From Escherichia phage JN02: a stretch of DNA of 64,000 nt. The stretch lies in the sequence record MT782071.1; one strand, 5' to 3'. The number at the start of each line of letters is the position of its first letter. The stretch's first letter is position 1. Under the pieces are notes generated by a model, which was not told the DNA's origin, ran no database searches, and was given only the letters and a program-made list of their open reading frames with translations. The position numbers and the translations under genes are program-made. Below are positions 9,930-53,758 of this stretch, in pieces.

Positions 9930-10258
9930 TTTACCGCCTTAACAATTTTCAGGTCAACGAATTTTTTCTTACGTTGATTTTTCATACGACGGATAGTCTT
10001 TTCAGAGATTTCATGTTTCTGATAAGCTTTAGATTCAACACCAAATGCAGCAACGTCAAATTCAGAAAGAATATATTGTACTAGAATTTCACGAATAGAA
10101 TTACGTCCAATTTTCTGGTCGTGTTTTTGCATGATTTCATAAAGACGGAATTCCCACGCGTCAAGGACTTGAGGAGTAACAATATTGCCGGATTCCAGAA
10201 GAGCAGCAACTTTATCGAAAGCGAAAGAATTAACTACGTTTTTGATTTTAGTAGACAT
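9926..10258 (-). CDS. Hypothetical protein
   Basis: 110-aa track ORF with basic C-terminus (RRMKNQRKKK); early promoter directly upstream. Confidence 0.65.
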   Translation of the reverse strand: MSTKIKNVVNSFAFDKVAALLESGNIVTPQVLDAWEFRLYEIMQKHDQKIGRNSIREILVQYILSEFDVAAFGVESKAYQKHEISEKTIRRMKNQRKKKFVDLKIVKAVK

Positions 10259-16365: not shown

Positions 16366-16625
16366 TTAAAATATTCTCGTAGTTGGTCAAATCCACCAAT
16401 ATGACTTCCATCAGGAGCAAACACTTGAGGCATAGTCAATCCGACTTGTGATTCACGTCCAAGCTTAACCAGAAGCTCAGCAATTTTCTCATCATCGAAC
16501 ACACCTTTTTCTGGCATAACATTAATGAATTCGAATGGCTGTTTCTTAACAGTCAGCAATCGTTTCGCATTATCACAATAAATGCATTTATGAATAGTAG
16601 AGTCATACCCGTACACTTTAAACAT
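16362..16625 (-). CDS. nrdC: Glutaredoxin/thioredoxin NrdC
   Basis: Track ORF 16362..16643; from M7 reads MFKVYGYDSTIHKCIYCDNAKRLLTVKKQPFEFINVMPEKG...GGFDQLREYFK, about 90 percent identical to T4 NrdC as recalled; CIYC redox motif. Confidence 0.9.
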   Translation of the reverse strand: MFKVYGYDSTIHKCIYCDNAKRLLTVKKQPFEFINVMPEKGVFDDEKIAELLVKLGRESQVGLTMPQVFAPDGSHIGGFDQLREYFK

Positions 16626-17031
16626 TATTTTTCCTTTCATCAATTAAATATGCAACGCCAAATACAATACATGTAATAAAACCTGTGATACAGATAGAAA
16701 CCAACAACACTGTACCAAAGAACCAAATCAAGTTATCTTTAGTAGTTTGTTTGATATCCATCTCACGAATTTCTATAGCTATCGTATCACCTTTATTCAG
16801 AAGCGTATAAAATGATGGAGATACACGCCTGTCAAAAACTCGTCCTTGCTCATCTTTATAGACTGCAATAAATTCTAATTTAGAATATTTTCCTGTAGAT
16901 TGGCCTGAGATTAATTCCACTACCTCCACAGGAATTACTTTAGTTTCCATGTAAGTATTCTGGCTGTTCCAAATGAATGGAATAATAGCAAAAACTAAAG
17001 CTGCGATAAAACAACGAAGGCTATATCTCAT
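16618..17031 (-). CDS. Membrane protein
   Basis: 137 aa; hydrophobic segments at the N-terminus (FIAALVFAIIPFIW) and C-terminus (WFFGTVLLVSICITGFITCIVFGVAYLI). Confidence 0.6.
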   Translation of the reverse strand: MRYSLRCFIAALVFAIIPFIWNSQNTYMETKVIPVEVVELISGQSTGKYSKLEFIAVYKDEQGRVFDRRVSPSFYTLLNKGDTIAIEIREMDIKQTTKDNLIWFFGTVLLVSICITGFITCIVFGVAYLIDERKNNV

Positions 17032-17336
17032 TATAATGTTCTCTCAAATTTGTGGAAGCATTTACGGCATTTCAATTTCAAGTTATCAGTAGTCCAGTTA
17101 ACCAGTTGGACTTGGATAGTTCCACATTCCGGGCATGGATGTTTTGCTGCCGATTTGGCAGCATTTTCACGTCGTTCAACCATTTTCATGATTTCGTTCC
17201 ATACCGGAGGAACGAACTCTTCTTCACCGTGGATTTTATCTCGCTGAACAAATTCAATCTTTGAACTATCGTCAATAAACTTAACCAAGCCATGATTAGT
17301 GCTCATATCAATATCCTCTAAAAGACGTAGTTTCAT
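17031..17336 (-). CDS. Zinc-ribbon protein
   Basis: 101 aa; C-terminal CPECG...CRKC four-Cys motif. Confidence 0.6.
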   Translation of the reverse strand: MKLRLLEDIDMSTNHGLVKFIDDSSKIEFVQRDKIHGEEEFVPPVWNEIMKMVERRENAAKSAAKHPCPECGTIQVQLVNWTTDNLKLKCRKCFHKFERTL

Positions 17337-18286
17337 TATAACACCTCAATGGCATTTCGTAAACCATCCGCTTTTGCATTCAGAGCTTTTAATGATTTAG
17401 TTTGTTCTGCAATCTGGGCTTCGACTTCTTTCAGACGAGATTTGAGATATTCGCGTTCTTCTCTTAAGTTATCAACTTTTTCTACTTTAGGTTCTTTAAT
17501 AGACTTAGGTTTATACGTATTAGGGTTCTTCAGCTTAATTTTAATACGAGAACTGAATAACATTGAACCGTTATCTTCGGTTTCGTCATACATTTCTACT
17601 ACGTCCATGATTTTTAACATCATACGAAGTTTATAAGACAGCGAACGAACGGTTTTGTTGTGCTTATTAATTTCTTCGGCTTTCATTGTACCGAGATTAC
17701 GTGAGTAGTAATAAGGAACCTGGATATCAATTGACAATGATGCGTTACCATTGCCAGTTGGTTTGAATACTGCAGTAACCCAATCCTTAACATGAACCGT
17801 ATTTGTACGGTCATCGCCGCCTGTGAATAATTTACGTGAATGTTTAAAAAGCATATTCACTTGGTTATTGAATTCACACGCAAATTTATCAGCAAATTTA
17901 GTTTCAGGAATGGTAGATAACCAATCAGCTAAATGAGTCTTTTTAACATCGTTAATAATAGTAAATTCAACCAAATCAGTTTTAGATGTCACAGATTTAA
18001 TAAAGCTTGGCTTCATAAAGTTTTTAATGTTATCACGAGCCACAGTAGAAGATAATAAACGAGAACGTTTAAACCATTGAAGCAGCGTCCCTAATGAATG
18101 AGAATACGCATTCTGAGTATCTTTACAGATATGATTTTCTTGACCTGTGTATGTACCAAAATCTCTAAGAATACCACTTACTACATTTCGGTGTGGAACA
18201 TCAAATCCTAATGAACCGGAAGCACGTTGGGCATGAACGTTAGCGATAAGACCTGCAAAATAATCAATGTAATGTGAACGTGTCAT
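17336..18286 (-). CDS. Hypothetical protein (316 aa) with C-terminal coiled coil
   Basis: Track ORF with ATG start; SD and own early promoter upstream; C-terminal heptad-like region. Confidence 0.7.
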   Translation of the reverse strand: MTRSHYIDYFAGLIANVHAQRASGSLGFDVPHRNVVSGILRDFGTYTGQENHICKDTQNAYSHSLGTLLQWFKRSRLLSSTVARDNIKNFMKPSFIKSVTSKTDLVEFTIINDVKKTHLADWLSTIPETKFADKFACEFNNQVNMLFKHSRKLFTGGDDRTNTVHVKDWVTAVFKPTGNGNASLSIDIQVPYYYSRNLGTMKAEEINKHNKTVRSLSYKLRMMLKIMDVVEMYDETEDNGSMLFSSRIKIKLKNPNTYKPKSIKEPKVEKVDNLREEREYLKSRLKEVEAQIAEQTKSLKALNAKADGLRNAIEVL

Positions 18287-18314
18287 AATATTTTCCTCTC
18301 GTTAAGATAGAAAG

Positions 18315-18344
18315 ATTATACTCCAACCATCCTTGGTTGTAAAC
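18315..18344 (-). promoter_or_regulatory. T4-type early promoter
   Basis: Minus strand GTTTACA, 17 nt (contains palindrome AACCA-agga-TGGTT), TATAAT; about 29 nt upstream of the ATG at 18286. Confidence 0.7.
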
Positions 18345-18348
18345 TGAT

Positions 18349-19284
18349 TTATGGTTTTAATGCATTCATTGCGTTAAAAAGTTTAGAGTACTGCAACTGG
18401 AGCTTGGTAACTACTTGTTGAGCATCACGAAGCTTAGCTTGTGCTTTGTCAAGTTCAACAGACAGTTGGTCCATAGTGGCCTTGATTTGATTATAATAGT
18501 AATCTTCGGCAGGAAGAAGACCGTTAGAGATTTCCAGTTTAGTCGACGGTGAAGTGTATATAGATGGAGCAGTAAAATATGCACCTAGAACTTCAGCATT
18601 GCCAATTGGGGTTGCAGTAATTGACGCTTCGAAATTTGCATTTTCCTTTTTAAGATTTTGATAGTATTCAGAGTCTTTGTGCCACCATGGCGCAGGAACC
18701 TTTTTACCAATAGATACACGGGCCTGGATAGCGATATGGCCCTTATTCTTGATAGGGTTGATAATATTAAGCTCACGAGAATAAATTGCTTTAATCTGGT
18801 GAATATTATCACCTAACACTTCCAACGCTTGGTGGAATACACGAGCAACGTTATCATTCTTAGGTTTATACGTAAGAGTGAACTCGTTCTCACTGATAAC
18901 CATGATTTCTAACTTATCGTAAGTATATTTCAAATGTTTCATGTTAATTGCTTGAGGACGAATACGAGAAGCAATGGCCATCAGATTGTTAAGGTTATTC
19001 CGGAACTGCTTAGCGAAATATTGTCCTTCACCGCCAATACAAAAATTACGAAGTTTCTGTTTGGCTAATAAACGGCTGAACTCACCATTTTTAATGAACT
19101 CTTTAACGGGTGTGTTAGTAACGCATTCAAATTGAGTAAACTTACGAGAAGTAATCCCATAATATGAACAGATTTCCTCAATCTCTTCAGGAGTCTTTAC
19201 AGGCATACGGATAGGATTAGGACCTGGAGTATATGCGTTCGAGGTAAATTCTTTGATAAGTTCTCTACGTGTAATAAAAGCCAT
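18349..19284 (-). CDS. Hypothetical protein (311 aa) with C-terminal coiled coil
   Basis: Track ORF; own early promoter upstream; C-terminus KAQAKLRDAQQVVTKLQLQYSKLFNAMNALKP. Confidence 0.7.
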   Translation of the reverse strand: MAFITRRELIKEFTSNAYTPGPNPIRMPVKTPEEIEEICSYYGITSRKFTQFECVTNTPVKEFIKNGEFSRLLAKQKLRNFCIGGEGQYFAKQFRNNLNNLMAIASRIRPQAINMKHLKYTYDKLEIMVISENEFTLTYKPKNDNVARVFHQALEVLGDNIHQIKAIYSRELNIINPIKNKGHIAIQARVSIGKKVPAPWWHKDSEYYQNLKKENANFEASITATPIGNAEVLGAYFTAPSIYTSPSTKLEISNGLLPAEDYYYNQIKATMDQLSVELDKAQAKLRDAQQVVTKLQLQYSKLFNAMNALKP

Positions 19285-19310
19285 TTTATATTCCTCATGT
19301 TGAAAAATTT

Positions 19311-19339
19311 ATTATACTCCAACCATCCTTGGTTGTACA
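19311..19339 (-). promoter_or_regulatory. T4-type early promoter
   Basis: Minus strand TGTACA, 17 nt (same AACCAAGGATGGTTGGAG spacer as 18315-18344), TATAAT; upstream of the ATG at 19284. Confidence 0.65.
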
Positions 19340-20335
19340 TCATTCCTTAAGAAGTTTTACTACCTGAATAAGATTAGCTCGTTCTGTTTTATTTTTACTG
19401 TTTAAGCCTGCTAATCGTGAGATTTCATCGTCAGTCTGTTGAATAGTTACATTAAGTTCGTTAATCAAAGCTTCAAAGTATTTGATTTGCTCAGCATGTT
19501 TTGATTCAAATTTCTGAACCGGAATAACGTCTTGGTTCAGTTCATCAATAAGGTCTTTAAGAGCATCTTCTTGGTTGATATCATATTCAACTTCTTTTAT
19601 TTCTTCAACGAGCTCGTCTTTATATCTAACGTCTTTTAGTCCTGGAGCTGGTCCTGAAATCTCTTCTTTAAGAGTACAAACATATACATTACGGTATCTA
19701 ATGCCGTCTCGCTTGATATCAACTTCGTCAATAAATCCACAATGTTTAAGTCCAGAGCCGATTATGTCAAAATATCCTTGACGTTGTCCTTCAAACGTTA
19801 CACGAACTACTAAGACAGTTTTGCCACCAACCTTTTGAAGCTCACATTTATAAAAGTCTGTTGAACCTGAATAACGTGGATGAGTTTTAAAGTTCATCTG
19901 ACGATCTAGGCCCATTTGTAAGCGTGCTGATACGGCCATAAAACGTGTTTGGTTCTCGTTAAGATGAGCAACAATCCGTTTCAAAGGCATTTTACCCTGT
20001 TCACGACCGAACAAATCAGTACGTCCTAGATTACGCAGGATGTTGTTAGAGTTAATCATCGACAGAACGTTAAGTTTATTCAGCGCGCTGAAGATTCCAT
20101 CGGCCATTGATTTTCCGTAACCTTTACACGCTTTAATAAGCGCTCGCGGTAGATTAGTATAGATTTCAGACGGCATATGAAAATCAAATTTACTAGTCAA
20201 TAATTGATGAACTTGGATAGCAATTTGCTCATAATTAAGTGCTCTGCGATCGTTATGGTCTTTAAACCACACTTTAATCTGTGAAGCACATAAACCGTTA
20301 ATTTCATGTTTTACCGCATCAGATGTAATGCTCAT
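19340..20335 (-). CDS. Hypothetical protein (331 aa) with C-terminal coiled coil
   Basis: Track ORF with ATG start; candidate middle promoter upstream. Confidence 0.7.
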   Translation of the reverse strand: MSITSDAVKHEINGLCASQIKVWFKDHNDRRALNYEQIAIQVHQLLTSKFDFHMPSEIYTNLPRALIKACKGYGKSMADGIFSALNKLNVLSMINSNNILRNLGRTDLFGREQGKMPLKRIVAHLNENQTRFMAVSARLQMGLDRQMNFKTHPRYSGSTDFYKCELQKVGGKTVLVVRVTFEGQRQGYFDIIGSGLKHCGFIDEVDIKRDGIRYRNVYVCTLKEEISGPAPGLKDVRYKDELVEEIKEVEYDINQEDALKDLIDELNQDVIPVQKFESKHAEQIKYFEALINELNVTIQQTDDEISRLAGLNSKNKTERANLIQVVKLLKE

Positions 20336-20370: not shown

Positions 20371-20395
20371 ATTATAACCCGTCCTTGGGTAAAGC
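20371..20395 (-). promoter_or_regulatory. Candidate MotA-dependent middle promoter
   Basis: Minus strand aaacGCTTTAcc, 13 nt, TATAAT; same architecture as the 4604-4627 element; upstream of the ATG at 20335. Confidence 0.4.
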
Positions 20396-20397
20396 GT

Positions 20398-20925
20398 TTA
20401 TGCGTGAACCGTCTTTAAACGTTCTTCAAATTTCCGAAGAGTACTAATACGTTCTGCTTTCTGTTTTGTATAGTTTGCAATACGTTCTGAAGTGAGAGCG
20501 TATCGTTCATTTACTGTTTCTTTCATGAAGTCAGGGATTTCACGAGAAGCTTTAATTTCATCAAACTTATCGAGTACTGCCTGGTCTTCAGCGATTAAAT
20601 TTTCGTACATCTCGATATCTTTCTTGATAAACTCGATATCTTCCTGGGTTACTTTGGATAAACGAGATGCTTTATCCTTTTTGTACTGCTCGTTAGTTTC
20701 ACGAGACCAGAATAATGTACGTTTTTTGTTAGTGTTTTTGTAGACTTCCACAATTCCAACTGAATCGATGATAACAATCCAATTCCAACGAGATTTGAAA
20801 ATCTGACCTCCGTCCACGGTAATCTCGTTACCATAAGCAACGTCATTAAAGAACTTGCTTTGTGCTTCAGATTTAAATTTACCGTCGTTATAATTTACCA
20901 GGTTGAAAATATCTTTAGCGTTCAT
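20398..20925 (-). CDS. Hypothetical protein (175 aa)
   Basis: Track ORF; charged/helical C-terminal half. Confidence 0.65.
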   Translation of the reverse strand: MNAKDIFNLVNYNDGKFKSEAQSKFFNDVAYGNEITVDGGQIFKSRWNWIVIIDSVGIVEVYKNTNKKRTLFWSRETNEQYKKDKASRLSKVTQEDIEFIKKDIEMYENLIAEDQAVLDKFDEIKASREIPDFMKETVNERYALTSERIANYTKQKAERISTLRKFEERLKTVHA

Positions 20926-20983
20926 GTTTTACCTCCAGTAGTTGATAGGTCTATAATAACATAACCATAGACCTTGTAAACAA

Positions 20984-21271
20984 CTAAAAGAAACTTTTTT
21001 CGGTATTTTTTCCACTGAACCAAACCGACTTCGGGACTTTCTGTAATTTTTCGGATTTAAGTTTCTCTTCCTGTTCTTTCTTATATGCATCCTTGTCGTA
21101 CTGGAACAACTCTAGGGCATTCTTTTGCAGACGGTCTAAGGTAATTAAGGCTTTAGTTTTTCCTTTCAAGGAAGAGTCCTGGCGAACCTCCTCGCTATAT
21201 TGCATCGTAGAACTAACCATACGATGAGCATACAGTTCAACTGCGGCTTTAATTTTTTGCATAAAATCCAT
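20984..21271 (-). CDS. Hypothetical protein (95 aa)
   Basis: Track ORF; SD AGAGGA upstream of the ATG. Confidence 0.55.
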   Translation of the reverse strand: MDFMQKIKAAVELYAHRMVSSTMQYSEEVRQDSSLKGKTKALITLDRLQKNALELFQYDKDAYKKEQEEKLKSEKLQKVPKSVWFSGKNTEKSFF

Positions 21272-21409: not shown

Positions 21410-22411
21410 TTATTTCAGTAAAGTTACTTCAGAGATTTCCTCCCAACCATCTTTATCAGTTGAAATAAAATCTGCTACATAAAGAGCCGTACGTAATGAT
21501 ACGTTGCGAAGACGAGATACGTTAGCCTTCATCCAGGACAATGCTTTATACGTTTCTGCATCTGTCAGACCACGTTTCTGCATCATGTCAGTAGATAATA
21601 TTACATCTTCAACTCGAACCATAATCTCTTCATTAGAGTGTACTCCAAGGTCGAGATACACTGAACGAGATACTAAAGCTTGAAGGTGTGGAGCAAGCTT
21701 CGAACCGCGTTCTAACTCTTTATCGATATCAACGTTTGTAATGAAAACGATAGTACCTTCAAACTCAAATTCTTTATCAATACCCTTATCATCGAGATAA
21801 GATGACGCAGTGCTCCAACAAACTTTGCGTTTATCTCCGGTATCTAATGCTGCTTTAAGAAGGTTCAAGATGTCCATATCTGAGAATACGTCAACGTCGT
21901 CGATTAAGAGAACGCTATCTGCATCACGGTTGAGCCAAAGTTGTTCGTAAAGGCCAATACCAGAGATTTTACCATTAATGCTTTTGTATTTGATGAAACC
22001 ATTATCGTTAGCATTATTAAGTGCTTTATCCAGAGAATACGTCTTACCAATACCAGCTGCACCTGAAATAATGAGTGAACGAATTTTGCCATCGATAATG
22101 CCATTCGTCATCATGTTCATTACTTTAAAGCGTTTGTTGATACGAGTTTTCATATCTTCAGTGCTTTCAACAACTGCAACTGGTGATGTCTCAACTCCTT
22201 CCATTACGATGTCTGATTTGAAGACCCATACTCCACGTTCAGAACCATCAATCATAACGAAAATTTTACCATCACCTAAGTGGGAACATTCAGGATTAAG
22301 CTTTGCCGGGAACCAGGTCTTTGTAGCAACATAAGAACCAGAGATTTCGTTATTACGATAGATACCTTTTTTGATTTGAACGTTGAACATTTTATTCTCC
22401 AATTTACTCAT
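21410..22411 (-). CDS. P-loop NTPase (Walker A/B) protein, 333 aa
   Basis: Walker A GAAGIGKTYSL and Walker B-like hhhhDD (ADSVLLIDDVD); family not assigned. Confidence 0.7.
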   Translation of the reverse strand: MSKLENKMFNVQIKKGIYRNNEISGSYVATKTWFPAKLNPECSHLGDGKIFVMIDGSERGVWVFKSDIVMEGVETSPVAVVESTEDMKTRINKRFKVMNMMTNGIIDGKIRSLIISGAAGIGKTYSLDKALNNANDNGFIKYKSINGKISGIGLYEQLWLNRDADSVLLIDDVDVFSDMDILNLLKAALDTGDKRKVCWSTASSYLDDKGIDKEFEFEGTIVFITNVDIDKELERGSKLAPHLQALVSRSVYLDLGVHSNEEIMVRVEDVILSTDMMQKRGLTDAETYKALSWMKANVSRLRNVSLRTALYVADFISTDKDGWEEISEVTLLK

Positions 22412-22478
22412 TTCGTTTCGATAGGTCTATAATAACATATCCTAAAAGCATGTACACTACTTTTTAAAAATATTTTAA

Positions 22479-22505
22479 CCCCCTAAAGGGACCCGAAGGT
22501 CCCCA
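22479..22505 (-). repeat. Conserved 3' hairpin element, copy 1 (GGGACC-cgaa-GGTCCC core)
   Basis: accccctaaagggacccgaaggtcccca immediately after the stop of the 88-aa gene; the same ~27-nt element recurs at 41737-41763. Confidence 0.6.
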
Positions 22506-22508
22506 TAT

Positions 22509-22775
22509 TTACTTATCGCACTTAGCAACATAATTAGGCATATCACAGAATACGGAGCGAGTAACTACTCGTCCCTTTGACCATGCTTCAGTTGCTTGTC
22601 CAGCCGTGCTATTAATATAGCTTGATTTAATGTTCTCAATACCCTGAGAATGTGATGCATTTACAGAACCATTAGAAGGTCCAGAAGACTGGTTACCACC
22701 AGCTCCTGCACCCGTGGTAGCACCAACAGAGAATGCCATCATTACTGCGAATAAACCAATTACTAATTTTTTCAT
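22509..22775 (-). CDS. Small secreted protein (88 aa) with N-terminal signal peptide
   Basis: MKKLVIGLFAVMMAFSVGA signal-like N-terminus, Gly/Ser/Asn-rich middle, two C-terminal Cys; late promoter directly upstream. Confidence 0.6.
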   Translation of the reverse strand: MKKLVIGLFAVMMAFSVGATTGAGAGGNQSSGPSNGSVNASHSQGIENIKSSYINSTAGQATEAWSKGRVVTRSVFCDMPNYVAKCDK

Positions 22776-22806: not shown

Positions 22807-23796
22807 TTATTTATAGTAAGAATTATGATTTTCGAGATAGACTTGTTCAAGGAAGTCATCCCAGAAACTCATATCTACTTTTTGTTGCATACCGTTCTTG
22901 GCAGCTTGTTCTGACGCATGTTCAACTTGGTCAACGATATCTTCTAGGAATTCTTGTACAGTTTTAAACGTATGTTTACCAAGCTTAACATCAAGAATAA
23001 ATGGAGCATCCTGAAGTGGGTAAACCAGGTCGCCTGTTTTGTAAATTTCTAATAATTGAAGTCCACCACGACATGCATGACTCAATGCTTTCCAGTCAAT
23101 ACCTTCATTAGCTTCTGCCTTACGAGCACGTTCGCCATAGTTCTCTTCTAGTTTAACAAGGATGGCATTGAACTCTTTATTGGTTAACGTGTCTTGGAAT
23201 TTACGGTCCAACAGATTATAGAATGTTTGCTTACCTGTTTTCTCGTTTTCGGTTTCAACCCATGAAGCAAATTCACCTACAGGCAGAACATTCTTCATAT
23301 GTGATAAACGAATTACTGCACCATTATCAAAGTATTGTCCCCATTCATTAGAACGTTTAAGGGCTTGACGAAGAATAGCCAGTCGAGAACCCTTGACACC
23401 ATATTTAGAAGCTTGCTTACGGACATACCCTAAATAAGATTTCATGTTAGTGGTATAGAAGCGAGACCTGTTATCTTGAATATACTTCCATACATCAGGC
23501 AAATCAGATTTAACTACTAGACTTTGTGGAGTGTGAAGCATATCTAATGCGACTGTTTCACCATCTGCAGCTAGTTTAAAGAAATATTTGAGACTATACA
23601 ACTCATGGTCAACGTCGTCTTTTGTGTTCTTAGAAGACGTGTTATTCGTGTTCTTGCTCATATGTTCTTTAACGTTACCGGTCAAGATATCACGAGCATG
23701 AGGGACGTAAATTTCTTTAAAATCGACGTCCGATTCAGGAGTAGACGTTCCATAAAGGTGACTACCAAAGTAGCCTTTCATAATTGTTTTCATCAT
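22807..23796 (-). CDS. Nucleotidyltransferase-fold protein (329 aa)
   Basis: N-terminal GSHLYGTSTPESDVDF fits the Pol-beta-type NTase signature G[GS]x9-13Dh[DE]h; C-terminal helical domain; subfamily not assignable by eye. Confidence 0.6.
   Translation of the reverse strand: MMKTIMKGYFGSHLYGTSTPESDVDFKEIYVPHARDILTGNVKEHMSKNTNNTSSKNTKDDVDHELYSLKYFFKLAADGETVALDMLHTPQSLVVKSDLPDVWKYIQDNRSRFYTTNMKSYLGYVRKQASKYGVKGSRLAILRQALKRSNEWGQYFDNGAVIRLSHMKNVLPVGEFASWVETENEKTGKQTFYNLLDRKFQDTLTNKEFNAILVKLEENYGERARKAEANEGIDWKALSHACRGGLQLLEIYKTGDLVYPLQDAPFILDVKLGKHTFKTVQEFLEDIVDQVEHASEQAAKNGMQQKVDMSFWDDFLEQVYLENHNSYYK
22808..22815 (-). promoter_or_regulatory. Late promoter (TATAAATA) upstream of the 88-aa secreted-protein gene
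   Basis: Minus strand TATAAATA about 33 nt upstream of the ATG at 22775, overlapping the stop of the upstream gene. Confidence 0.5.
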
Positions 23797-51784: not shown

Positions 51785-53758
51785 ATGGCAAACACTCCTG
51801 TAAATTATCAATTAACCCGAACAGCGAATGCTATTCCCGAGATTTTTATCGGGGGCACATTTGCCGAAATCAAACAGAACATTATCGAATGGCTCCATGG
51901 GCAGAATGAATTTCTTGATTATGATTTTGAAGGTTCGCGTTTAAACGTATTGTGTGACCTTTTAGCATATAACACTCTTTACATCCAACAGTTCAGTAAT
52001 AGTGCAGTGTATGAAAGTTTTATGCGTACTGCAAACTTGCGTAGTTCTGTCGTACAAGCGGCTCAGGATAACGGATATCTGCCTTCATCTAAATCAGCAG
52101 CACAAACAGAAATTATGCTCACATGTACGGATGCATTAAATAGAAACTATATCACCATTCCACGTGGCACTCGTTTCTTAGCATACGCTAAAGATACTTC
52201 TGTTAACCCGTATAACTTTGTTTCTACTGAAGATGTCATTGTAGTTAAAGACAAAAATAACCAATATTTCCCACGTCTTCGATTAGCTCAAGGACGTATT
52301 GTTCGCACTGAATTAACATTTGATAGATTAAAACCTATCATTATTCGTGATAAGAATATTGACCGTAATTTGGTTAAGTTGTATGTTGACGGAGCAGAAT
52401 GGATTAACTGGACTCGTAAGTCGATGGTTCACGCTGGTTCTACGTCAACAATCTATTATATGCGTGAAACGGTTGATGGGAACACCGAATTTTATTTTGG
52501 TGAAGGCGAAATCTCTATTAACACATCAGAAGGTGCGTTAACATCTAACTATATTGGTGGCCTTAAACCTGTTCAGGGTTCTAAAATCGTAATTGAGTAT
52601 ATTTCTACTAACGGCGCAGATGCTAACGGTGCTGTAGGATTTTCTTATGCTGATACATTAGCTAATATCACGGTAATCGATATTAACGAGAACCCTAGCA
52701 ATAACCCAGACTTTGTTGGGGCCGATGGTGGTGGCGACCCTGAAGATATTGAACGTATCCGCGAATTAGGCACAATTAAACGCGAAACTCAACAACGTTG
52801 TGTAACCGCTTCCGACTATGACACATTCGTCTCTGAGCGGTTTGGTTCTATTATTCAAGCGGTTCAAACATTCACAGATTCATCTAAACCAGGGTACGCA
52901 TATATTGCTGCTAAGCCTAAATCTGGATTGTATTTGACTTCTGTTCAACGTGATGATATCAAAAACTATTTGAATGATTATAACTTAGGGACTATTACAC
53001 CTGTTGTTATTTCGCCTGATTATTTGTTTATTAAAATGAATATCAAAGTTACATACGCGTTGAATAAACTCCAAGAATCAGAACAATATCTTGAAGGGCA
53101 AATTATTAATAAAATTGACCGATACTATATTGAAGATGTAGAAATTTTTAACTCATCGTTTGCAAAATCTAAAATGCTAACTTATGTCGATGATGCAGAT
53201 ATTTCTATTATTGGTTCTTCAGCTACTATTCAAATGGTTCGCGAAGTACAAAACTTCTATAAAACGCCTGAGGCCGGTATTAAATACAATAATCAGATTA
53301 AAGATAGATCGATGGAATCTAATATATTCTCGTTTGATTCACACAGACCTAATCCAGAAAATGCAAACGAAACTATTAAATACGGTGTTCGCATAGTATC
53401 TTCTGACCGTAATGACCGTGGCATAGGTCAAGTTATTATTGGTCCATTTGCGGACGGTGATGTTGTTGAAAACGAAAATATACAACCTTATACAGGTAAT
53501 GATTTTAATAAACTTACTGTTACTGACGGACGAAACAAATACTATTCAATCGGTGAAGTGAATTATCCTGCCGATTCGATTTATTGGAACATTGCTAAAA
53601 TTGACCTCACTTCAGACCGTTTTGAAGTTCAAACAATTGAACTTTATTCCGACCCTGCAGATGATATTATTTTTACAAAGGATGGTTCTTTAATCGTATT
53701 CGAAAATGACTTACGTCCTCAGTACTTAACTATAGATTTGGAGCCTATTTCACAATGA
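51785..53758 (+). CDS. 6: Baseplate wedge protein gp6
   Basis: Track ORF 51728..53758; start at MANTPVNYQLTRTANAIPEIF as in T4 gp6. Confidence 0.92.
   Translation: MANTPVNYQLTRTANAIPEIFIGGTFAEIKQNIIEWLHGQNEFLDYDFEGSRLNVLCDLLAYNTLYIQQFSNSAVYESFMRTANLRSSVVQAAQDNGYLPSSKSAAQTEIMLTCTDALNRNYITIPRGTRFLAYAKDTSVNPYNFVSTEDVIVVKDKNNQYFPRLRLAQGRIVRTELTFDRLKPIIIRDKNIDRNLVKLYVDGAEWINWTRKSMVHAGSTSTIYYMRETVDGNTEFYFGEGEISINTSEGALTSNYIGGLKPVQGSKIVIEYISTNGADANGAVGFSYADTLANITVIDINENPSNNPDFVGADGGGDPEDIERIRELGTIKRETQQRCVTASDYDTFVSERFGSIIQAVQTFTDSSKPGYAYIAAKPKSGLYLTSVQRDDIKNYLNDYNLGTITPVVISPDYLFIKMNIKVTYALNKLQESEQYLEGQIINKIDRYYIEDVEIFNSSFAKSKMLTYVDDADISIIGSSATIQMVREVQNFYKTPEAGIKYNNQIKDRSMESNIFSFDSHRPNPENANETIKYGVRIVSSDRNDRGIGQVIIGPFADGDVVENENIQPYTGNDFNKLTVTDGRNKYYSIGEVNYPADSIYWNIAKIDLTSDRFEVQTIELYSDPADDIIFTKDGSLIVFENDLRPQYLTIDLEPISQ

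Follow-up and report, generated by a model that had tools for sequence, protein, structure and literature searches.

Genes A, B and C in the nrdC region of Escherichia phage JN02 appear to encode diverged members of one protein superfamily of T4-like phages

Three genes of similar length, here called A, B and C, follow one another on the minus strand in the nrdC region of Escherichia phage JN02 (sequence record MT782071.1), of which a stretch of 64,000 nt, referred to as the window, was analysed. A sequence-only reading had suggested that they might be alternative versions of one host-interacting factor, and the locus raises two questions: are the three proteins related, and what could they do for the phage? 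The comparisons described here assign A, B and C to the families of T4 NrdC.3, NrdC.5 and NrdC.6, respectively. Judged by profile comparison, NrdC.3, NrdC.4, NrdC.5 and NrdC.6 appear to form one superfamily. The genes themselves are already known as hypothetical proteins, with near-identical copies in more than 100 genomes; new are their correct orthology and the evidence for an NrdC.3-6 superfamily with a common architecture, a link that was not found in the literature searched.

By nucleotide similarity, the window is that of a T4-like coliphage of the genus Mosigvirus (RB69/JS09-like). The 6.5 kb around genes A to C share 97-98% identity with phages such as vB_EcoM_TU01 and JS09, at least 80% of this region is present in 148 phage records at 95-99% identity, and one near-identical record is classified as Mosigvirus. 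The block lies between two groups of genes, with nrdD, gene 49 and nrdC at one end and nrdC.8 to nrdC.11 at the other. The variable parts of T4-type genomes were termed hyperplastic regions by Comeau et al. (PMC4122927), and the nrdC-nrdC.8 interval with genes A, B and C is part of such a region. All three open reading frames (ORFs) were recovered exactly where the sequence-only reading had placed them and with the same lengths (Table 1). Its Shine-Dalgarno sequences are present as well, with GAGG 8-9 nt 5' of every start codon. Transcription runs from C through B to A, and the intergenic gaps of the block measure 62, 55 and 62 nt, each with promoter-like elements.

A comparison with the nrdC.x proteins of T4, which had been proposed as a check, gave an assignment for each gene. 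A corresponds to NrdC.3 as its orthologue: the two proteins share 57% identity along their entire length (317 aligned positions, BLASTP expectation value (E) 2e-121), and A matches phrog_1435 at 2e-105. The NrdC.2 homologue follows immediately downstream, its start overlapped by the stop codon of A, so that A shows both features by which the NrdC.3 family was defined, full-length similarity and a place directly 5' of nrdC.2. No NrdC.4 gene was found in this phage when its proteins were compared with those of T4 by BLASTP.

B is of the NrdC.5 type. It matches the Pfam family PF23882 (DUF7235) with 378 bits (E 4e-113, profile positions 1-307 of 307), where membership requires a full-length match above the gathering score of 30 bits. 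T4 NrdC.5 matches the same profile (421 bits, E 5e-126), while the Pfam search found no PF23882 match in A or C. In BLASTP, B and T4 NrdC.5 share 23% identity over 300 amino acids (aa; E 8e-8), and the RB69 protein annotated as NrdC.5 is 96% identical across 77% of B. As in T4, the gene lies in the same block, preceded by an NrdC.6-like gene and followed by one of the NrdC.3/NrdC.4 type. The motif KLxNAxNAL in the C-terminal helix and the early expression class are also common to both. B differs in being preceded by its own promoter, whereas T4 nrdC.5 follows nrdC.6 without one.

C belongs to the NrdC.6 family. It matches phrog_2257 at 2.7e-125 and shows 38% identity to T4 NrdC.6 over the N-terminal 127 aa (BLASTP, E 1e-18) or 29% over 270 aa (tblastn), and the hidden Markov model (HMM) of its family matches T4-type NrdC.6 at 1e-109 to 1e-117. 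The T4 reference NC_000866 has one A fewer than its close relatives L008 and L010 at the 3' end of nrdC.6 (locus L002, about 9997-10120). Owing to this 1-nt deletion, the frame shifts and T4 NrdC.6 ends after 275 aa without the conserved C-terminal helix, which is still encoded in another frame (SKAKSEREKLIKIVDLLKS). C retains the helix that the T4 version lacks. The families are small: 33 clusters for A and 19 for B among 5.8 billion proteins, and only six for C in an exhaustive profile search of 1.84 billion representative proteins, which revealed no bridge from C to A or B. Among the proteins searched, all three families are restricted to T4-like phages.

No similarity between A, B and C was detected by pairwise BLASTP, in agreement with the earlier remark that none could be seen by eye. 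At the level of family profiles, the outcome is different. Eighteen related loci were gathered from IMG/VR with the neighbouring NrdC.10 gene as anchor, their ORFs were extracted, and proteins of 190-420 aa at the same position were clustered. More distant T4-like loci carry a single protein of about 355 aa at the nrdC.3-6 position. One group of these proteins comes from the Citrobacter phages Moon, Merlin and CF1 and has a weak match in Klebsiella phages. The ~355-aa proteins of Citrobacter T4-like phages and of T4-like viral contigs were merged into one profile, the hub. In HHalign, the hub matches the C family together with its 338-aa relatives from loci L006 and L007 at 95.5% probability (E 1.4e-8, 229 columns), the B family at 91.9% and the merged NrdC.3 and NrdC.4 profile at 89.9%. 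NrdC.3 and NrdC.4 match each other at 97.8% (E 8e-13) and are, by this measure, clearly paralogues. Their merged profile matches the B/NrdC.5 family directly (90.5%, E 1.3e-6) through the globular part, with columns 62-279 aligned to 41-224. The pairwise HHalign comparison suggested earlier thus connects the NrdC.3/4, NrdC.5 and NrdC.6 profiles at 88-96%, either directly (A-B) or via the hub.

Several controls bear on the possibility that A, B and C are three unrelated ORFan-type accessory genes whose only likeness is their size and a coiled-coil tail acquired by convergence, with a profile similarity that is a compositional artefact. Among 64 HHalign targets, about 45 of them unrelated families and ORFs from the same phages, all NrdC.x groups rank above all unrelated targets, which score at most 22 with a probability of about 1%. 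Reversed profiles score 13-23, compared with 40-67 in the forward direction. The aligned regions are globular, their registers are mutually consistent, and the start of the shared core maps alike in all independent pairings. When one family at a time is omitted from the HMM, the omitted family is found again, namely NrdC.4 (2e-10), T4 NrdC.5 (1e-12), the L006/L007 relatives (5e-9) and an NrdC.6 member (4e-6), with the best unrelated ORFs at 0.03-1. These recoveries hold after the C-terminal 55 residues have been cut from the profile. A of the window reaches 2e-5 in the leave-out test. The cross-family alignment also contains discrete common motifs, SRLLS..A..LxNF (core form [S/G]xL[S/L]..A...LxNF) and F..N..LL..ASRL..GD (core form F..N..LL..[A/G][S/A]R[L/I]..GD), followed by a helix with L...L..M..V, an invariant proline in P-[V/I/A]-E and a heptad-rich terminal helix of about 45 residues ending in KLxxAxxxLK. 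This shared plan begins with a family-specific N-terminal region of about 40-85 residues, and the alignment holds no conserved set of catalytic-type residues.

Other results weigh against common descent, and some of them favour unrelated genes. Besides the negative BLAST comparisons, PHROGs and Pfam keep the three families separate, and two of the direct profile links are weak (11% for B-C, 60% for A-C). In the leave-out test, B of the window reaches an E of only 0.035-0.06, and C is missed by the profile that lacks its own family. The merged profiles were built in this analysis and may contain alignment artefacts. No usable three-dimensional model was obtained either, the mean predicted local distance difference test (pLDDT) values of AlphaFold2 being 57.9 for A and 37.0 for B. 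Since B and C are weak in the leave-out test, their place in the superfamily follows from their secure family assignments: at the family level, homology was found in the globular core and not just in the coiled-coil tail, and it extends to these two proteins by transitivity. The weakest link, as far as the profiles tell, is that of C. With the reversed profiles, the unrelated families and the trimmed profiles taken into account, an origin from three unrelated genes seems improbable, and a common superfamily is the preferred reading.

In addition to size, the sequence-only reading had seen a heptad-rich C-terminal segment in each protein. With a crude home-made heptad score (best 28-residue window, z relative to sequence shuffles), the best window falls within the last ~50 residues of A, B and C. 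A and B stand well above their shuffles (z about 2.8 and 3.5; score 0.90 for B, shuffle mean 0.55), so that the observation holds for these two, whereas C is marginal (z about 1.8), its weaker signal being broken at AGLNSKNK. In the cross-family alignment, the C-terminal segments of all three proteins align with the terminal helix of the other families. The AlphaFold2 model of A, computed from a 29-sequence family alignment, contains a long terminal helix (275-315, pLDDT 66-81); together with residues 1-85 (pLDDT 80-90), it forms the only usable part. In the model of B, for which a mixed alignment of A, B and C served as input, the terminal helix (261-309, pLDDT 60-73) is the sole part at that level. 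Measured against a definition of coiled coils as heptad periodicity unbroken for four or more heptads in a predicted helix, A and B are candidates and C is a marginal one.

The superfamily profile matched only coiled coils in the PDB, via the C-terminal segment and all weakly (best E 0.008), and the PDB sequence searches likewise gave nothing besides coiled coils. Searched with Foldseek, the low-confidence model of A led to no interpretable fold and found no match in the PDB. In BFVD, its template modelling (TM) scores were at most 0.35, even to its own orthologue, next to full-length alignments at E of about 1e-4 with 300-350-aa proteins of Acinetobacter and Serratia phages. The NCBIfam search returned no matches, and the PADLOC search only weak coiled-coil matches to LmuB and BrxC.

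Table 1 Genes, C-terminal segments and promoter cassettes of the three-gene block (positions in the window)
Feature	Position	Strand	Description
Gene A	17336..18286	-	316 aa; orthologue of T4 NrdC.3 (phrog_1435, PF26897), paralogue of NrdC.4
C-terminal heptad-rich helix of A	17339..17482	-	residues ~269-316; ends in family motif GLRNAIEVL
Gene B	18349..19284	-	311 aa; NrdC.5 of the RB69 type; member of Pfam DUF7235 over its full length
C-terminal heptad-rich helix of B	18352..18510	-	residues ~259-311; ends KLFNAMNALKP
Gene C	19340..20335	-	331 aa; NrdC.6-family protein (phrog_2257; PF26899 per protein database)
C-terminal helical segment of C	19343..19495	-	residues ~281-331; ends NLIQVVKLLKE
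Cassette of gene A, early-type promoter-like	18315..18343	-	TTTACA-N17-TATAAT; hairpin CAACC[AAGGAT]GGTTG at 18324-18339
Cassette of gene B, early-type promoter-like	19311..19339	-	TGTACA-N17-TATAAT; hairpin CAACC[AAGGAT]GGTTG at 19320-19335
Cassette of gene C, MotA-box middle-promoter-like	20371..20399	-	AAACGCTTTA, 13 bp, TATAAT; hairpin ACCC[AAGGAC]GGGT at 20377-20390

A promoter for each gene had also been proposed, and a separate promoter-like cassette does precede each of A, B and C. The candidate promoters of A and B match the consensus at 11 and 10 of 12 positions, respectively, and the cassette of B begins right after the stop codon of C. Their cores, described earlier as almost identical, are in fact an exact 27-nt direct repeat (18315-18341 and 19311-19337). 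The middle promoter suspected before the third gene fits the published MotA-box rule, (a/t)(a/t)(a/t)TGCTTtA located 12±1 bp upstream of a -10 element TAtaaT (PMC2988021). As a match in sequence, the putative C promoter has AAACGCTTTA with one mismatch, a spacing of N13 and TATAAT. Its homologue in T4 is the element preceding nrdC.7, and the -10 of that element (T4 about 53332-53337) is found 7 nt before the start that was mapped for the middle promoter PnrdC.7, at 53325 (PMC2988021, Table 1). MotA box, hairpin and -10 element are common to both. In T4, this promoter drives nrdC.7, nrdC.6 and nrdC.5, whereas here the NrdC.6-like gene C follows directly. The NrdC.7 homologue, a predicted membrane protein of 137 aa with 41% identity to T4, is encoded between nrdC.2 and nrdC (16618-17031, minus strand) and not upstream of nrdC.6 as in T4; by this relocation, the PnrdC.7-type promoter has come to lie immediately 5' of gene C. 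The connection of the promoter of gene C to the mapped PnrdC.7 is new here.

A generic promoter scan of the region showed no overall enrichment (24 found, 23.6 expected), so that the case for these promoters is built on their position, repetition and conservation. On these grounds, each gene is predicted to have its own cassette for expression in the early phase or at the transition to the middle phase. Transcription would start near 18308, 19304 and 20364 on the minus strand, the last of these starts being expected to require MotA and AsiA. A second repeated promoter cassette, distinct from that of A and B, is located upstream of the nrdC.8-like and nrdC.10-like genes (20944-21000 and 22420-22476; 57 nt, 74% identity, minus strand, ...TATGTTATTATAGACCTATC).

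Every promoter of the nrdC.3-nrdC.7 block in the Tequatrovirus and Mosigvirus loci carries a hairpin within its spacer, between the -35 element (or MotA box) and the -10 element. The loop AAGGAY is invariant, while six different, perfectly complementary stems of 4-7 bp occur (including loci L002-L011). The window contains four such hairpins with 0.38 expected, namely those listed in Table 1 and one at 41312-41325, each of them on the minus strand. The mapped PnrdC.7 of T4 contains one copy. Four of five pairs are altered on both sides in an alignment of nine variants; as the variants were chosen for pairing, the unbiased evidence consists of the enrichment and the constant position only. RegB sites (GGAG) beside the hairpins were considered as well and dropped, GGAG being found in some copies only.

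The cassettes recall the PeSL/PmSL units, short repeated intergenic units that combine a promoter of the form TTTACW-N17-TAYWAT or of MotA type with a stem-loop and a Shine-Dalgarno sequence (Arbiol 2010; Comeau 2014, PMC4122927). Such units border variable accessory genes, and recombination between them has been proposed to drive gene shuffling (PMC4122927). The A and B cassettes, too, are located in a hyperplastic region, and in each of them an early promoter of this type (-35 element TTTACA for A, TGTACA for B) is followed by a Shine-Dalgarno sequence and the start codon. They differ in the stem-loop, which in PeSL lies upstream of the promoter and is a terminator, whereas here the hairpin sits within the spacer and lacks a U-tract. 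A terminator scan found nothing at the spacer hairpins, which have no T-run and in this respect depart from PeSL.

Evidence on function comes from one member of the superfamily. An evolved T4 deletion mutant fails to plate on ECOR17 or on MG1655 with ECOR17 dsr1, and plating is restored by deletion of dsr1 or by nrdC.5 in trans (PMC9391042). In these experiments, T4 NrdC.5 counters the defence exerted by Dsr1 (Srikant, Guegler and Laub 2022, PMC9391042), a SIR2-domain protein whose tetratricopeptide repeat (TPR) sensor is reported to recognise the phage major capsid protein (PMC12803255). Our search found neither a solved NrdC.5-Dsr1 structure nor a later paper renaming nrdC.5. A functional analogy is offered by DSAD1 of phage SPbeta, which inhibits DSR2 by binding (PMC10981675, PMC11087589): in that case, too, a phage protein blocks a SIR2 NADase defence protein. 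No sequence relationship to DSAD1 was detected, and its target DSR2 is triggered by the tail tube protein, in contrast to the capsid protein reported for Dsr1 (PMC12803255).

The genomic pattern is in line with a counter-defence role. Identity to T4 amounts to 23-27% for B and 29-38% for C, compared with 98% for nrdD, 92% for nrdC, 83% for NrdC.8 and 77% for NrdC.10. Relative to T4, B and C are the most diverged genes of the region, which fits an arms race. Between one and four superfamily copies per genome are present across the loci. The genes are dispensable, and natural knock-outs are common, with an nrdC.5::nrdC.3 fusion, a split nrdC.4 and the frameshifted T4 nrdC.6 as examples. Divergence, variable copy number, natural knock-outs and early or middle expression together led us to adopt the counter-defence reading. 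In this model, A, B, C and T4 NrdC.3-6 would be diverged paralogues of an accessory superfamily confined to T4-like phages. They would be binding proteins without enzymatic activity, the terminal helix probably serving to form dimers or oligomers, and would neutralise host immune sensor or effector proteins; each paralogue may be tuned to a different target or allele. B itself is in the family of the T4 protein that counteracts the SIR2-TPR protein Dsr1.

We regard an early/middle-expressed set of non-enzymatic anti-defence paralogues as somewhat favoured. For the individual genes, the chance that B blocks host immune proteins is put slightly above even, and the same role for A and C is a tentative proposal with the balance rather against it. 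It speaks against all of these that experimental function exists for T4 NrdC.5 only and that B is just 23% identical to it. The earlier suggestion that the three genes are versions of one host-interacting factor is upheld in part: profile links with clean controls, the recovery of left-out families and the anti-Dsr1 effect of T4 NrdC.5 speak for one factor type. A bolder model, in which NrdC.3-6 and the ~355-aa relatives are modular immune-sensor blockers with a constant core, a dimerising helix and a fast-diversifying specificity region, each directed at a different sensor (for example TPR sensors of the Dsr1/Avs7 type or their alleles) and reshuffled via the hairpin-bearing promoter cassettes, must be rated as rather unlikely at present.

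A single family could also have a role other than immune evasion, for example as factors of early host takeover whose partner is the nucleoid, RNA polymerase or the replication/deoxynucleotide machinery; the effect of T4 NrdC.5 on Dsr1 would then be indirect. Early or middle expression and the adjoining nucleotide-metabolism genes nrdD and nrdC would suit such factors, the coiled-coil binder architecture is compatible with many roles, and the mechanism of T4 NrdC.5 is unpublished. However, fast divergence, variable copy number and frequent inactivation are unlike binders of conserved host machinery, and the sole experimental phenotype is defence-specific and relieved by deletion of dsr1. We therefore judge host takeover to be an unlikely explanation and retain the counter-defence reading. 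A further alternative is found in many GenBank labels, according to which these are thioredoxins or proteins associated with ribonucleotide reductase; homologues of A, B and C are called 'thioredoxin' in several phage records. Neither Pfam nor NCBIfam gave a thioredoxin or glutaredoxin match, and the cross-family alignment lacks a conserved CxxC. The label, found in many phage records on homologues of most nrdC.x genes as well, appears to have been carried over from gene names that record the map position beside nrdC, and this alternative deserves hardly any credence.

Some observations concern relatives and neighbours of the block. The database protein P0033 is a natural chimera of T4-type NrdC.5 (residues 146-272, 94% identity) and NrdC.3 (residues 141-316, 80%), joined at an FNxVN microhomology, and corresponds to a deletion that has removed nrdC.4 and parts of the neighbouring genes. 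A match of the NrdC.3 profile to NrdC.5 at 1e-15 proved to be an artefact of this chimera, and P0033 was excluded for this reason. In the T4-type contig L009 (14400-15432), nrdC.4 is split into ORFs of 193 and 158 aa. A separate family of about 260 aa (ORFs of ~256-266 aa) is encoded just upstream of the superfamily gene in L006, L007, L012-L014 and L016-L019, where it accompanies the single ~355-aa or 338-aa superfamily member of distant T4-like loci. PADLOC gave a weak match of this family to PDC-S18 (E 3.5e-4); as a candidate relative it was rejected, for it shows no profile similarity to NrdC.3-6.

The neighbours NrdC.10 and NrdC.11 occupy 21410-22411 and 22807-23796 (minus strand). NrdC.10, one member of this pair, is a P-loop nucleoside triphosphatase with weak AAA and STAND-like Pfam matches, all of them under the gathering scores. 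NrdC.11 is nucleotidyltransferase-like and is annotated in one record as 'RNA repair pathway DNA polymerase beta'. Together with genes A to C, both could form one neighbourhood of accessory or counter-defence genes. A GC-rich inverted repeat (GGGACCCGAAGGTCCC, 22477-22503), terminator-like on both strands, is located between an 88-aa ORF (22509-22775) and the nrdC.10-like gene.

In T4, the best-studied lytic phage, nrdC.3, nrdC.4 and nrdC.6 are without a known role, and nrdC.5 has a genetic phenotype only. If the four families form one superfamily, the anti-Dsr1 phenotype can be proposed directly for three to four genes in each genome of the phage groups sampled here, which comprise Tequatrovirus, Mosigvirus, Citrobacter phages (Moon, Merlin and CF1 among them) and related viral contigs. 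The assignment corrects the 'thioredoxin' mis-annotation of nrdC.x genes. Moreover, the diverged variants would provide a natural panel for mapping the blockade of Dsr1-type sensors and may help to explain host-range differences among therapeutic T4-like phages.

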